Source: Proteromonas lacertae
Taxonomy: Eukaryota
Length of the DNA stretch: 64,000 nt
Direction: 5' to 3'
Assembly (NCBI GenBank): GCA_002245135.1
Contig: NGBS01000305.1
Coordinates: 1-64,000 of the forward strand
Shown here piece by piece: positions 55,141-63,800 of this stretch. How positions within the stretch are numbered: the first letter of the stretch is position 1; the number at the start of each line of letters is the position of its first letter. The notes under the pieces are model-generated. The model searched no databases and was not told the origin of the DNA. It saw nothing but the letters and a program-made list of their open reading frames with translations. The position numbers and the translations under genes were made by a program.

Positions 55141-55752
55141 ATGAGTATGTTTATTGAGTGAGTTATTTAACATATAGGCAAATCAGGTAATAAATGTGAG
55201 ATTGAAGATGTGGAAGAAGTTGCAGAGAGAGTCAAAAATGGAATAGAAAACATGAGCGATTCTTTAAGAAGATCGTTTATAAGTGGTCATGTTGTAGGTA
55301 GTGTATTATACCTTAAATATGCATTTTTAGAATGAATATGATTCTCTTGATTGGATTATTGATAAATCTGTTGAATATTTACCTGCAATGAGTTTATCGT
55401 TTGGAACTGGTTATGCTACTGGGTATTAACAATTCATTATTTACAAATATAGTGTTTTAATTCATGATACAAGTAGAAAGTTCTTTTTATTTGGTGGTAT
55501 GGTATTTATGGGCATTCAATTTTTGGCTTATAAAGGATATTTAGATGTACATTGGCAAAGGTTGGAAGATGATATGAAAAAAGCATTAGATATTGATAAA
55601 AAAGGCAAAGTATGAGTATTATTCGTTAATTTGTGATATAGGTAAATAAAGAACAAATTAGAAAGAAGATAAAAAGCTTTATTAAGTTTTGTACATACAA
55701 TTTACCTTCCAGTAGTGCATTTGTAGCAGGTTTATATTTTGCATTGAGTTAA
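55141..55752 (+). CDS. FUN14-family mitochondrial outer-membrane protein (absent from the ORF track)
   Basis: Manual splicing gives LSFGTGYATG..GGMVFMGIQFLAYKGYLDVHWQRLE...NLPSSSAFVAGLYFALS*. Confidence 0.85.
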
Positions 55753-55908: not shown

Positions 55909-55964
55909 ACTCTTATCAAGCTTTCATTACATTTTTGTCAAGATCTTTAAATAGAAGATGATAT
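55909..55964 (+). repeat. 56-bp direct repeat, left copy
   Basis: actcttatcaagctttcattacatttttgtcaagatctttaaatagaagatgatat is identical to 60198-60253. Confidence 0.95.
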
Positions 55965-56286
55965 ATGGCTATTGATAGAATGAAATAGATTTTACAAATG
56001 AGGATGAAGTTATGACACCAATATATATATAATTATTACAATAGTTGTCAATTAGAAGGAACTGTAATACCAATTTGTATAACTGATATTCAGTTAATTG
56101 AAGAGCATGAAAGAAGGAGTATTCATATGCTTTTAACAAAATTACGTTTGTAATAATGTAGAAAATGAAGATAAATAGTTCAAGCTTGATCAAACTCTAA
56201 ATATAATTCTTTAGAATTCTTAGTGTTTATTTTTGCCCAATTTGCTCAATCCAGTAAAAATAAAAGATGTATATTTTTAATTATTT

Positions 56287-59200
56287 ATGTGTAGGGCAAT
56301 GAAGAGACAAGTAGACTATACTTCCAAAAATACTAGAAAAGCTAAAAGAGCGAGAATAGCTGAAGGTATTAACAGTGAAAATGAGTTTGATAATTTTGTA
56401 GAAATCATTAATAGTTTGAGTCTTTGTGATGATGATGATAAATGTTTAAAATTTAGTGATACAGTGGATATATTTCAGTTTCCTCTAAGAAAAATTTATA
56501 TGAGAGGGTGTTATGAAGTGATGTTTAGAGACATATGTAAAAGTATGTTGTGTTATGACAATGTAGTGATAACAGGTCAACCAGGCATAGGGAAAACCTC
56601 GTTTATATATGCTTTACTGTATTTCATTAAGAATTTACGAATAGACTTTAATAAAACAGAAAAGAAATATTTATTAGAAAGAGAATTGAATAGAGAAAGT
56701 GAAGAAATAGAAGAACTAATAAAAGAATTAAATGTAAAATTTGATGAGAAAAAAGAATCACTAGAAAATGATTTATCAAGCATTGATAGTGTGATAAATA
56801 CATGTAATGTTCGTAAAGAAGAATTGGAAAAAGAAATCAAAACACATTGTGATAATCTAAAGAAGATGATAGTTAATGGTTGTATTAATATATATAATAA
56901 TTTATACTTAATAAAAAATAATAAAAAAAATTGCACATTGTACAATATCGATCAAAATAAAGATATAATACTATCAAAAGAAAAGATGCGTGAACATTGT
57001 CAAGAACGTGGATTATTTTATTTGGATAAAATTAACAGCAGTATGAGTAATATAAATACTGCTACATTTGATGTTAAAGATACAATAATGAATGATTTAG
57101 AAGAAATAGAAAATAAATATAAGAAAAAATCAATTCCATTAAAAGAAATGATTGAATTTTATATCTTAATTAAAAAGATAAATACTAGAATGATGAACAT
57201 AATCAATCTAAATTATTCAGTAAATATAAATAATGCAAGAAAGAGCAAATTAGAAAGTGATTTGGCTGGATTAGATGGTTTATATGGGAAGATTCGAGAC
57301 ATTATGAATATTTCAATGAATAAAAGAAAACAAATAACAAGTGGATTTAAAAAATGCAAAGAATATGAAGAAGAAGTAGAAGAATTAAAAGGATTTAATT
57401 ATTATTTCTTAGATGCTTTTACTAGAAGTGTTAATAAAAAAGGCAACAAAGTTACAATCAACATATTAAAAGATATATATATAGTGAAAGGGAAGAAAAA
57501 CGGAAAGAATGAAGCAATAGTATATCTATTCAAAAATGGTAAAGTTTCGAAAGTTCCAATTCAACCGTGTGATATAAATGATTCAATAATAATAGTGGAT
57601 ACATTTAATGGTACATTTGAAGGTAGAAATAAAATCATATCAATCAGTTCACCTGATCATAAAAATAATGACAAATATACAAAAAATACTACTAAAAAGA
57701 AAGAATTATATTTTGATTCATTAAATGATGAAGAAATTAAAGAATGGTTTGAAAAATGTATTGGTTTTGATGTTGATGTAAATAATGATAAATTTAAAGA
57801 GACATGTCAAAAATATGGTAATATTCCAAGACAGATTTACTTTCACTATTTATATGCAAAGAATTACAATAAAGATTATTGGAAATATTACACAGAATTA
57901 ATCGAAGGTGTAGTTGGTTGTACAAGATATAATGATTTTTTAAAGAATTATATGGATAAAGAGTATTTGAAGAAAGAAGATTCATCAAATATTTTATTAA
58001 AATATGATTTAGAAGAACAATATGATGAATATTTAGGACATAATATATTAACTCCAAAAGATCATTTAAAATTCGTTTCAGATGCTGTAGAAAAATATAT
58101 AGTTAATAAATTCTATCCTGTTAAAGATGAAACAGAATACCAAACAATAAAACAAAACATCGACACAATTGATGATGATGATAAATTTATGAAAAGAATA
58201 GCTATGAAACAAATAATAGCATATGAGTTAAGTACTGGAATTATTGAATTAGAAATGAATCGTAGGGATTGTAATGATGAAGTTACTATAATTGACAGTA
58301 ATCCTGATTTCAAATTAAATTCTGAAAAACATGTATCAATTCATTATCCAGTTGGTGCATTACATTATGTTTATTACATATTGGATGAAGAAAACTATTT
58401 TGATTTGATTATAAATGGAGTGTTTATAAAAATATTCTTAGATGATGAAGAATTTAAAGATGATGATGAATTAGGTTATATTGTTGAAGATGAAACAGAA
58501 GAAAGAATCAGAAAATCAATAAAAGTATCAATATATTATATAATATTTAATTTTATTCTAGGATTATAGTGAAGATAAAAAAGGCACATTCATGTATGCT
58601 GTAATAAAGAATTATAATCTCTATGCATATGATGTAAACTTTGTAATTGAACATTCACCAGATGAAAAACCATCACAATCCTCAGTAACAGAAAGAAAAG
58701 GAAGAGCAGAGAGAAAAATTGCAATAGAAGTTAATACAGAAGTATATGTAGATAGAAACACATTATTGATAATGAGAAAATGTTTCTATGATATGTTGAA
58801 TATTATTTGTAGAGATAAATTTAATTATGATAATCAAAGAAACTATTTGATATTTGGTCATTCTAAAATCGGAAAATCAGTATTATCACACCTTATAAGA
58901 GATTATATTCATGAACACTATAGAAATATTAGAATAGTCTATAAATATAATGATAATACTGTTTCTTATGTTAAAGAAAATTATTATTTTAATAAGAATC
59001 TTCATCCATATATTGTAATTTCTGATGGAGGAGTAATAGGTGAAGATGATTATGCCGATGCAAAATCAGTAATTCTATTAGCTAATCCATCTGAAAAAGA
59101 GTATAAAACTTTTCAAAGTAAAAGATGTCCATTGTTGATATATATACCACCATTTACAAAAGAAGAAGTAAATAAAGTAAAATTAGTTCAAGATGTAGAA

Positions 59201-60127
59201 CTAATTGCAAAAGTAGACAGTGGCATTTATGAATTCAAAGAGTTGAAAAAGAAATCTCTTATAATGAAGAAATATGATTTTTATAAAAGAAACACAGCAA
59301 CTAATGAAGAAGAATATTTACATAATTCTCATAAAGCTGTTTTAGAATTATATGATGAGAATTTTGAATATTATGGTGGTGTAATAGGAAACTATAAATT
59401 TAATGATGTTGAGATTAATAAGCTAATAGAAAGAATTGATGAGAAAATGATTGATGATATTCTAAAAGGTATTAGTAAATCATCATTATGTAAGACAAAT
59501 TATGATAATATACTAATATATGAGACATATGAAGATGATGTTACTAAATCTGGTAATCTTAGATTTATAACTGAGACAATCAGAGATTTGGTAATTAGTA
59601 AAAAAAAGAGAATTGATTGAAATGGCAGATGGAAGAGATTATGCAGGAAATTTGTATGATAAAATTGTATTATATTTGATGAAGAAAGGTGATAAATTTC
59701 AAGAGAATATTGTTAGAAGTATATCTGAAATGAATAGAGCAGATAAATGGTTGAATTTTAAAGTTGTTCCAACAAGTATAACAACAGATGCAGATTTAAA
59801 AAATGAAATTCAAAAATAAATTCCAAACATATCATGATGAATTTAAAATGCCTGTGATTGATTTAGGTTACAGACCTAATTTCCCTGATGTTGATTTATT
59901 TATTGGACCGATAGATATTCAAATCACAAAAAAGAAGTAATAAAGAAAATCCTGAAATGGGATTTAGCAGTAGAACAATAGGAAAATATCCAGAATGTAT
60001 CAAAAATATAGCAATAGAATTAAAAGGTAAAAATGCACATGATTTATTTAAATTAGCAGATGATAATAAAAGTATAATACATATTACATTCCAAGAATTA
60101 AAAAACTATGCTTACTATTTAGCATAA
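56287..60127 (+). CDS. Second Crinkler/RHS-like gene: NTPase B + NTPase A + REase-like motif (three frameshifts at A-runs in the 3' part)
   Basis: GQPGIGKT, SSPD, YGNIPR. A 37-nt intron at 58525-58561 joins in frame to GHSKIGKS, SKRCP, YGGVIG, LRFIT. After shifts at ~59600, ~59815 and ~59930 it reads GYRPNFPDVD...IQIT and runs to TAA at 60127. Confidence 0.75.
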
Positions 60128-60197
60128 CTTCCATTTTATACTATTAATCTTTCATTGTATGTTGTTTTTTGAGAAAAATGAAAATAATATTTGTCAA

Positions 60198-60253
60198 ACT
60201 CTTATCAAGCTTTCATTACATTTTTGTCAAGATCTTTAAATAGAAGATGATAT
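60198..60253 (+). repeat. 56-bp direct repeat, right copy
   Basis: Identical to 55909-55964; similarity continues ~13 bp further with mismatches. Confidence 0.95.
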
Positions 60254-60829
60254 TTGATTATTGATATAGTAAAATCAATGTTTTTAGTTACATTTTATAA
60301 ACAATTTATATACATTTTGTAAACAATTTTACTAATTTGTAGTCAATTTTAATCGATTAAACTCTCCAATTTAATATATTAAAAAAGTTAAAATATTAAC
60401 TTGCTAAAGTGAATGCATTACTTTTCTACTGATAGAATATATTGGAATATTGGAATATAATTATTTATAATACATGGTGGGATTTCACTAAAATTAATAA
60501 AAAGGTTTTTATAATATAATAAAATTATAATAAAATTATAATAAAATATACTGATGTTGTATTATAAAATATTATAATGGATAGGCAAGATGTGACTCCA
60601 TATACATAATTTCAATAACACCAGGTAATATACATTGTTTTTGATAACCTTCAATACTATCACTTTGTAAATATAGATTAGGTTTATTATCATTCATCAA
60701 TATAAAATGTGTTGGTATGTATTCTGGTGGGTATTGAGAATTATTATAAACTTGTAATGGGAATATTATACAATTACTACCATCATTAGGGTATGATTGT
60801 ATAAGTCTATTATAATAATTATATAGTAT

Positions 60830-63800
60830 ATAAATGGGACTCTGGCATAATGTACCATAGTCCCATTTATGTAAGGTTCCTACGGGATTCCTCCCAACAG
60901 GGTCTACTTCTCAACAGAGTCTACTTCCCTACGGGGACTCCTCTAAGCTATTTCTATACCTATCTATGAGACGATCTCCTACAGGTACTCCTGTAAGCTA
61001 TCTAGAAGTGTTGGTTACCTCGAGGTGATGATTCTAATCATGCTCTTGACTCTCCTTGCTACGCTGGTGACCTTGTAAGGGCTTTTAATTGAACCGTGGA
61101 AACCAATCGTGGAACCGGGAGTTTACAATTGTTAACTTGTTACCAATTGGTAACTTCGATAGACTTGAATAGTTGAAATCATTTACCTTGTGAAGTATAA
61201 ATGGATCCAACCCAAGCAACATCTCCATTGAATGATAAAGTAGTCATAGAACAAGACTCTTCCAGGGACTTCAATTTAGCTTCTCAACTATCCCAGGTAA
61301 GCAACTACACACCACTGGTAGAATCATCCTCCGAAGGTAAGGTCAAGAGATCACATAAGGAACTTCATAAGGCAGCTGAGGATCATCCAGCTAAGAAGTC
61401 ACGGGTCAACAAAGTTTATTTCATCGAAGCACTGCTGGAGGTGCCCAAGGAAGTGATTGATCCTAGCAGTATTATAAATGTACGTATTGCTATGTTCAGC
61501 TTTGCTTACTCCGCAATCGCAGCTCTTCATCATCATCAACTCAGTAAGAACGCAGCCACTGAGAATCCCGAGATGTACTCCAAGTACTTAAGCAAGTACA
61601 TCATTAACTACCAACACCCTATAGCAAATCCAATATCATCTTCCAGGCTCATCGACTCCTTTGAAGAGAACAATAACGTGGGTGTTCACATCTATCAATT
61701 GAAGGGATCGCATTTACGATTAGCCAGACGCAGTAGCTGTACTTTACCGATGACTTCTCCTGATCATATAAGTAATGCAGATGATGATGAACGTCTTACT
61801 AATAGAGATTTTGAAGATATCATTTATGATAATGCTAAAAAGTTAGTAAGGTTTAGGTTAGATGAAATAATTGATAAAAGACTTATACCTGTAGAATGTG
61901 TGCATATGAAGTTATTTAATTGGTGTAAATCGTTATATCAACATGGACCATTTTCAAGAAATAAACCTTTACATCAATACAGTTATGAATCAAATAATGA
62001 TGTTAAAATAATAGTTGATAGATTAAATAAAGCAATTGATGAATTATGTATTGCTTCAAATTATATACTTAGGAATAATCCATTTGTCGTGCTTCATCCT
62101 AAAGAAAGATTGAATGTTGTCAAATTAGAAAATAAAAGAATAATAAAAATACAAAAAGAGACAAAGGATCATACTCATCCATTTAATGAAGAAGATGATA
62201 AAGATATATATGATAGTAATAATTATGAAGCAAATACATCAGCACCAGCAAATTCATCACATAATGTTGTAGTACGTCAATCAGCTCAACCACATGCACA
62301 ACAACAACAATCACAAGATAATAATAATGATGATAATGATGATGAAGAAGATGATAATGATTTACCTGATGATCCTTATGAAGATGATCAAGGTAATTTT
62401 TTGCCTTTAGAAGATAATTCTATTCATGCACAAACAATTCAAGTATATAGTTCAAATGCAATAAATAAGATTAGAATTTTTATAAATAAGTTACTGAAAA
62501 CAAAATTTTGGTATATAACAAATCAGCAAGAAAGAACTACATTTTCAATAGCTGTATTAATATATAATTGTGTAACAGAATTATTTTACTTAAGCAAATA
62601 TAGATCACCTAGTTTAAGAGATGGTCATGCATATCCTGAACCTGCTGATTATGATAAAAGAAATATAATGGGTTTACCTTCATCTATTTCTAATGGATAT
62701 CGAATGAATTATATAGCAACAATTCAAAAAATATTAGAGTCAAATAATATAAGGGAAGGTCAAAGAGACACAAATCATTATGCAGATGCAATTATGTTTT
62801 ATATGAATAAATTAACACAAAAGAAGAAATATATTAGTTCATTTCCACCATTATTGCCAGTAGAAGAAGCATTATCTAGAGATTATAATGGAAGATATCA
62901 AGTTACAAATCCTAATAGAGGTAATGTAAATGTAAATTTTAGAAATAATGTTGAACAACAACCAGTTGTTCCACAATTACAATCATCTCAACAGCAACAA
63001 GAAGAAGAAGAATTATCTCCTATATCTTCATCATCATTACAAGATAATCGATCTCAAAATAATAATATAGATGATAATAATGAAGATACATATAATCTTA
63101 GTTATGATGATGACAATATAGCACAACCACCTCCTTTAGTTTCAAGTGATTATAATAATAATTCACCAAGAGAGGTATCACCAGTATATTCACCAGTAAC
63201 ACCACCATTAGCTCCTTATTCTCAACCACCACAACCACCACCATCATCACAACTATCAAATACAGTTCATCATTTTAGATTTGATGGTACAACAAATCAA
63301 GTTCCTTATTCGTCTATTTTGCATATAGGAATAATGGGAATGATGATGAAACTAGTGATACAGATGTTTCTGAAACAGAATGGAATGATGAATATATTTT
63401 CCATTCACTTAAATTAAAATATGATCCAAATAGTAGTAATAATATAAATTATACAAAAATTGCTGATTTAAAACCTCCTACATTTGTTTTATATAGATTT
63501 AATGATGAATCCTAATGTAGTAAATAAACCTAAAAGGAATGTAAGAGCATTTACTCTGAAAGAATTATTACGTTATTATGCAATAGATTTATTTACTAAA
63601 GTAACTTATATATATGATATACAAGGCTATATGAATAATAAATTTAAAAAAGAAAAGATTGTAATAGTAAAAGATAATGTTCATTATGATAATTTTAAAG
63701 AATATGTAAAAAAATTCAATATTCAATTACCAATTAATACACCAGATATATCCATTTAATACATTAGATAAAAAATCACTTATGCTAAGATTATACGGTT

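Follow-up and report, generated by a model that had tools for sequence, protein, structure and literature searches.

The 64,000-nt stretch of Proteromonas lacertae DNA analysed here (contig NGBS01000305.1, positions 1 to 64,000; hereafter the window) carries two genes of the CR (Crinkler/RHS) nucleoside triphosphatase (NTPase)-nuclease family, called member 1 and member 2, each of which lies between long direct repeats. Around member 2 the repeat is exact over 56 nt (56 of 56 positions, spacing 4289 nt) and brackets a cassette of about 4.2 kb that consists of a leader, a gene for two NTPase modules and a predicted nuclease part, and a short trailer (Table 1). The first ATG lies 323 nt past the left copy and the final reading frame stops 70 nt ahead of the right copy, matching the distances of about 320 and 70 bp given in an earlier note on this DNA, which had described a perfect repeat of non-low complexity around an NTPase-restriction endonuclease gene.

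The 56-nt repeat is real and far above chance: when the window was simulated 20 times with an order-4 Markov model, the longest exact direct repeat measured 16-20 nt every time. Its trinucleotide entropy of 4.9 falls within the range of the window's other complex repeats, and the description as perfect and complex in sequence stands. A 27-nt core of the repeat gave two matches at no more than three mismatches in the window, against 0 expected, and no third copy of the 56-mer was found within these 64 kb. Past the 3' end of the core the similarity continues, extending the match to 78 nt at 92%; the added 22-nt tail agrees at 73% of its positions, a match equalled by 46 of 100,000 random non-coding pairs. 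There is no such extension on the 5' side, where 8 of 22 positions agree, which is the chance level. All six mismatches of the 78-nt match fall in the last 22 nt, and when six mismatches were scattered at random over 78 nt, a perfect run of at least 56 nt arose in 0.2% of trials. The repeat thus consists of a perfect core and, 3' of it, an arm that is genuinely homologous yet has diverged. Because so long a perfect run is so rare under random placement, a uniform old duplication or a clean target-site duplication fits poorly. The absence of any difference in the core bounds its divergence at about 5%.

Table 1. Features of the member 2 cassette, of member 1 with its bracket, and of the adjoining host gene (positions in the window).
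Feature	Position	Strand	Basis or remark
Left copy, perfect 56-nt core	55909..55964	+	Exact match and 27-nt core search
Left diverged tail	55965..55986	+	16/22 nt match the right tail; 20/29 out to 55993
Non-coding leader of cassette	55987..56286	+	ORF layout
Member 2 exon 1: NTPase module alpha, Walker A GQPGIGKT	56287..58524	+	ORF, domain and profile scans
Predicted 37-nt GT-AG intron, phase 0, frame kept	58525..58561	+	Splice-site prediction
NTPase module beta, GHSKIGKS	58562..59620	+	Nearest to RHS/Crinkler-type clusters
Predicted restriction-endonuclease-like part, NFPDVD and IQIT motifs	59595..60127	+	Weak profile support
70-nt trailer without poly(A) tract	60128..60197	+	Between last stop and right copy
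Right copy, perfect 56-nt core	60198..60253	+	Exact match and 27-nt core search
Right diverged tail	60254..60275	+	Counterpart of left tail
Intact 5S rRNA gene	3069..3187	+	Rfam, 88 bits; within repeat unit ~2900-3236 flanking member 1
Member 1: beta-NTPase and predicted nuclease / linker with 198-nt repeats / alpha-NTPase / UCH peptidase	3345..10599	-	ORF, Pfam, profile
Decayed 5S-unit copy	10874..11108	+	Lacks ~50 nt from the middle of the 5S gene; blocks 84, 74 and 81% identical
FUN14-family host gene, 3' part	55430..55752	+	Last gene of housekeeping block; ends 156 nt before left copy

Both genes are members of the CR-type family, and their P-loop NTPase is of the STAND/Cdc6-Orc1-like AAA+ kind. 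The Atlas clusters nearest to module beta hold unnamed oomycete and fungal proteins (0.97) and trypanosome RHS proteins (0.96), at a recognition value of 1964 that lies under the tool's mark of 2300. An exhaustive search with the first open reading frame (ORF) of member 1 yielded 13 relatives at 28-36% identity; the ten that were looked up are unnamed proteins on contigs of 1.5-4.8 kb, which are too short to offer flanks for comparison. A profile of nine relatives, run against the 1219 ORFs of the window, reached E < 0.001 only for the four NTPase modules of the two members, and nSTAND3 is present below threshold in 11 of the 18 alignment members. The family assignment made in the earlier note is thus borne out by the Atlas clusters and the relatives' profile. 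The CR family is multi-copy and diverse elsewhere. For one relative (P0003), a model at a predicted local distance difference test score (pLDDT) of 57 matched STAND, Cdc6/Orc1, NLR and TnsC-type AAA+ folds at Z 8-9.6, with helicases tied; at the best Z of 9.6 (root-mean-square deviation 4.1, 167 aligned), the AVAST5, Dda, Cdc6/Orc1 and NLR rows were tied.

Other searches were negative. Pfam scans matched neither RHSP itself nor an N-terminal header family (ubiquitin-like LXLFLAK or helical), helical headers being diverse enough to be missed. A PDB sequence search gave nothing below E 0.17, word-based protein searches gave no match to module beta among longer proteins and none to residues 380-746 of module alpha, and a profile search returned only five of the profile's own members. 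The nuclease assignment is weaker than that of the NTPase, and the restriction-endonuclease-like part is a prediction. In its alignment an E, a P-x-x-D and a T are invariant in 15 of 15 rows, which we take to fit the pattern of CR restriction endonucleases (REases). The model of the member 1 nuclease domain was poor (pLDDT 48), and its 50 fold-search rows, none of them a restriction-endonuclease chain, were uninformative. Nearly all ORFs of relatives P0001-P0008 run on for about 15-20 residues past the QxT motif of the nuclease and stop in a V-Y-rich tail, a pattern that hints at an intron position common to them.

Member 2 is not one open frame. Two long ORFs, one with a canonical Walker A motif (56287-58569) and one with a degenerate motif (58562-59620), are joined by an in-frame intron and followed by three further frames. 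Compared with member 1, its module alpha has some 270 additional residues, placed between the Walker A part and the remainder of the domain. The nuclease part is split over the three frames, with breaks at A-runs. Hidden introns were rejected as the cause: at one break no GT-AG pair 20-80 nt apart would bridge the gap, and candidates at the other two lie only at 28-34% G+C, against 6-11% in three clear introns of the CR genes. Intron-junction candidates in the housekeeping genes range from 8 to 34% G+C, so introns at these two breaks are still conceivable. The right-hand neighbour of the cassette has similar frame breaks; decay and poor consensus are both possible for those of member 2.

Could the bracket itself be a product of assembly? 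A loop or join might have been resolved at the shared 56-mer, for instance by threading a circle or a distant copy into the contig. Assemblers commonly use a word size near 56 nt, the length of the repeat, and the frame breaks without typical introns, in member 2 and its right neighbour, cluster from about 59.6 kb to the end of the window, where the consensus may be poor. We nevertheless regard such an artefact as very improbable, given that the diverged tail is real homology rather than something an assembler makes, that the comparable bracket of member 1 is far from exact, and that even a loop requires both gene-repeat junctions to be present in the DNA.

Member 1 stays open through about 2390 codons; two introns are predicted in it, both in frame (9126-9096 and 6784-6749). 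Its bracket is not an exact repeat: an intact 5S rRNA gene unit faces a decayed, internally deleted copy at 74-84% identity. The intact host 5S gene within this repeat means that at least one of the two brackets is host-type DNA. The earlier note had both members bounded by direct repeats of different sequence; this holds in that both are bracketed and the brackets share no sequence, but not in the sense of two exact repeats. The leaders and trailers of the two cassettes likewise share no sequence. In both members the anatomy is alike, with 274-323 nt from repeat to ATG and 70-108 nt from stop to repeat.

Some further features of member 1 are recorded here. A UCH/USP deubiquitinase domain is fused to its end (3345-4100, minus strand; Pfam E 4.7e-15). 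The linker contains in-frame tandem repeats of 198 nt (2.4 copies, 98%) and 18 nt, at 7019-7499 and 8244-8365, together with CxxC pairs, and 4.6 copies of a 45-nt tandem repeat lie at 10661-10867, between the ATG and the decayed 5S unit. Immediately left of the 5S gene there is an imperfect non-coding palindrome about 1.1 kb long (1496-2034 and 2078-2633; 89% over 297 nt, 95% over 177 nt), which may be a fold-back duplication or a relic resembling a miniature inverted-repeat transposable element.

The order of modules is swapped between the two genes: alpha, beta and nuclease in member 2; beta and nuclease, then alpha, in member 1. Circles or tandem arrays would yield such a permutation. One unlikely, though by no means far-fetched, explanation is accordingly that the locus is the remnant or the collapsed assembly of a head-to-tail tandem array, with the repeat plus the CR gene as a unit of 4289 nt, growth and shrinkage of the array through unequal crossing-over at the repeat, and member 1 as an older unit of 5S and gene. 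Tail-to-head copies of CRN genes have been reported in Phytophthora infestans (PMC5289972), and 5S spacers are said to receive inserts fairly often (PMC10946416). Only a single unit is assembled here, however, and what follows the right tail shows no relation to the leader, its score being reached by 266 of 500 shuffles.

It is rather improbable that the 56- to 78-mer is a small dispersed repeat, or an unrecognised small-RNA or promoter element of a repeat-rich compartment, with the CR gene merely lying between two copies. The bracket of member 1 does consist of a multicopy gene type, the 5S gene, and a loose motif taken from the 3' half of the repeat was counted 10 times where simulations average 2.5, with eight occurrences in non-coding DNA near the two CR loci, although the pattern was chosen post hoc. 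Besides the missing third copy, the repeat region has no stable fold (6 of 6 folds no better than shuffles, z 0.46 and 1.37) and no Rfam match, the sole match in the window at E up to 1 being the 5S gene of Table 1. Copies outside the window were absent for the 56-mer in viral contigs and for a 30-nt core in metagenome and prokaryote contigs, collections that are poor in eukaryotic DNA and carry little weight. Several further resemblances were rejected. A longer, partly deleted duplication upstream of the core is unsupported: two settings let 103 of 1000 shuffles do as well, and a third setting let 19 of 1000. In 4 of 4 tests the core showed no significant resemblance to the sequences around it, among them a 22-nt tandem repeat (60289-60351) and, where the right copy joins its flank, an 8-nt word. 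A 9-nt iteron-like motif was found seven times against 4.8 expected. Likeness of the repeat to the 45-nt tandem repeat of member 1 (4/300) and to the sequence upstream of 5S (7/300) is borderline among 14 comparisons and was left unused.

What, if anything, moved the cassette? Pfam scans of five ORF pieces and PHROG scans of the two long ones gave no transposase in the cassette; Pfam and PHROGs likewise gave no tyrosine or serine recombinase, and Pfam on the ORF pieces gave no reverse transcriptase. Terminal inverted repeats (TIRs) were not found, the inner and outer ends being equalled by 262 of 300 and 243 of 300 shuffles, nor do any occur among the inverted repeats of the window. A TG-rich word shared after the FUN14 and cassette stops was rejected as a general 3'-end signal, occurring after only 2 of 10 genes. 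With neither TIRs nor a DDE transposase, the cassette does not qualify as a cut-and-paste transposon; with no reverse transcriptase, the predicted intron kept and no A-tract at the repeat, it does not qualify as a retroelement lacking long terminal repeats or as a retrocopy. The introns in both genes and the lack of a poly(A) tract point to copying of DNA, not RNA.

An autonomous element could still be imagined in which the NTPase polymerises on the target in the manner of TnsC and holds two nuclease nicks at a distance of 56 nt, leaving a true long target-site duplication. The sharp left edge and perfect core would fit, as would the STAND, Cdc6/Orc1 and TnsC-type AAA+ folds matched by the relative's model. 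R9 retroelements, which use restriction-like endonucleases, produce a duplication of 126 bp (PMC6895275), and CR NTPase-REase pairs have been linked to prokaryotic transposons (PMC5289972). We consider it unlikely as well, as such an element leaves the diverged tail and the 235-340-nt 5S bracket unexplained, has no inverted termini, and would have to act with neither a strand-transfer enzyme nor a reverse transcriptase in the cassette and with a broken nuclease part. The long target-site duplication proposed in the earlier note thus finds no support in its plain form, on account of the diverged 22-nt tail and because the bracket of member 1 is old 5S ribosomal DNA (rDNA) at 74-84% identity with deletions. 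Its second proposal, an att-like integration, lacks a recombinase in the cassette; an identical core with a diverged arm, as at att-type sites, is what we see.

A core with a diverged arm, a bracket of host 5S DNA and permuted modules are together best accounted for by recombination of the cassette end with a similar chromosomal stretch, by way of a circle or of repair synthesis. We therefore tentatively favour, with slightly less than even confidence, a DNA-level insertion of the cassette of about 4.2 kb through recombination guided by homology or through the repair of a break; the gene's own nuclease may have set the event off. On this reading, the cassette end would have carried a look-alike, about 80 nt long, of its chromosomal target. 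A circular copy crossing over with the target, or synthesis in the course of break repair, would then have left one copy of the repeat on either side; the 56-nt core would be the tract made identical in the insertion, and the 22-nt tail a residue of older divergence. The least certain step is the first, in which, by analogy with homing endonucleases, the family's own nuclease may cut and host repair may finish the process.

Self-comparison of the window speaks for this reading: it gave seven rows (four tandem, one inverted and two dispersed direct repeats), so that only two dispersed direct repeats occur in 64 kb and each encloses a CR gene, a coincidence with a chance of about 1 in 378 given some 28 gene loci and independence. 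Other observations weigh against homology-guided insertion. That figure overstates the case, as n is 2 and both CR genes lie at repeat-rich edges of the housekeeping block, which deprives the loci of independence. In length and in age the brackets are far from alike. The look-alike end of the cassette has no source that was found, the 56-mer having neither a third copy in the window nor an RNA family. No related locus was confirmed in viral, metagenome or genome contigs, and neither an empty site nor a circle junction nor a paralogue flank was seen. In the assembly as it stands, the nuclease part of member 2 is broken; with X bridging the breaks, it scored 6.2 bits, which 8 of 1000 shuffles equalled, and the hhalign probability was 25%. 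A broken nuclease beside a core of less than about 5% divergence speaks against all active models and fits poorly with very recent self-driven movement, an objection that consensus errors would lift.

In a stronger form, which we think doubtful but worth stating, the CR genes here would themselves be a selfish element, mobile although it encodes neither a transposase nor a recombinase nor a reverse transcriptase. The protein would cut chromosomal sites that resemble the cassette end (5S rDNA units in one lineage, the 78-mer in the other), host repair would copy the cassette in between long direct repeats, and circles would shuffle the modules. If true, a self-mobile CR cassette would be the living form of the transposon from which Crinkler and RHS effectors have been proposed to descend.

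The surroundings are eukaryotic. The window has 27% G+C and holds genes for mitochondrial carrier, TBC, SNARE, PI3-kinase and FUN14 proteins with short GT-AG introns. He_PIG and EGF-repeat surface genes, together with intron lengths of 31-37 nt, might point to a Blastocystis-like stramenopile. The downstream motif of human Blastocystis subtypes is not enriched in the window (3 found, 5.5 expected), and AT-rich Blastocystis members also lack it (PMC12129017). To the right of the right copy, short tandem repeats follow (22 nt, three copies, in the tract mentioned above; 11 nt, three copies, at 60515-60547), then a strong hairpin at 60827-60873 (z -4.7). The G+C content rises to 40-43% over 60800-61800, and G+C at third codon positions is 0.43 in the first 193 codons and 0.08 after them. 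Between 60820 and 64000 an ORF of 738 aa, for which Pfam, PHROGs and Atlas gave no match, is followed by frame breaks, and the tract has the appearance of a foreign element joined to AT-rich sequence. The unassigned ORF at 61201, which had no match, is outside the repeat.

How does the cassette compare with known systems? In Campbell-type integration (attL/attR), as in copying by homing endonucleases, an identical core and a diverged arm flank the insert, and a nuclease gene may be passenger or driver. The cassette departs from Campbell-type integration in having no tyrosine or serine recombinase and in that its two brackets share no sequence. R9 and other long interspersed nuclear elements (LINEs) with restriction-like endonucleases offer a likeness in the predicted restriction-fold nuclease and the long repeat, which for R9 is a target duplication in rDNA (PMC6895275); unlike them, the cassette has no reverse transcriptase, keeps its introns, has no poly(A) and shows a repeat with a diverged tail. 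Medea1 of Tribolium is a CR-NTPase and CR-REase gene on a mobile element, described along with mobile CR-like elements (PMC11342252), and Medea rides in a 21-kb composite Tc1 transposon (PMC3144190), whereas the cassette has neither transposase nor inverted termini. Crinkler genes carried by helitrons or by hAT/mariner elements are also copied as DNA in repeat-rich regions (PMC5289972, PMC12957317), but no helitron, DDE transposase or TIR stands beside either member in the window. Crinkler-like genes can be copied by adjacent TIR elements, in an account whose accessible text does not mention direct repeats or target sites (PMC12957317).

In domain content, the two genes resemble CR proteins with an NTPase, a helix-turn-helix (HTH) and a REase, which are described along with their link to prokaryotic transposons and with helitron-linked tail-to-head CRN copies (PMC5289972): a P-loop NTPase precedes a predicted restriction-endonuclease-like part, and the peptidase fusion of member 1 has a parallel in the deubiquitinase fusions of the related Wolbachia CifB nucleases (PMC11342252). 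They differ from known CR proteins in having two NTPase modules per gene, in an order swapped between the members, and no ubiquitin-like header in Pfam scans. We found no report of CR genes with long flanking direct repeats or a target-site duplication in the literature covered, outside which lie Zhang et al. 2016 and its supplements, which may bear on the point. Reviews connect the multiplication of Crinkler/RHS genes with prokaryotic transposons and with transport by helitrons, Tc1 or hAT elements (PMC5289972, PMC11342252, PMC12957317); here, both CR members lie between long direct repeats with no carrier transposon seen, one bracket being a 5S rDNA unit. Should the bracketing not be general, it would be an ordinary recombination scar in a repeat-rich region. 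Should relatives show it as well, these predicted nucleases would represent a new kind of mobile gene, and if it held genome-wide, the flanks would be defined target sites at which the self-mobility of an NTPase-nuclease cassette becomes directly testable.

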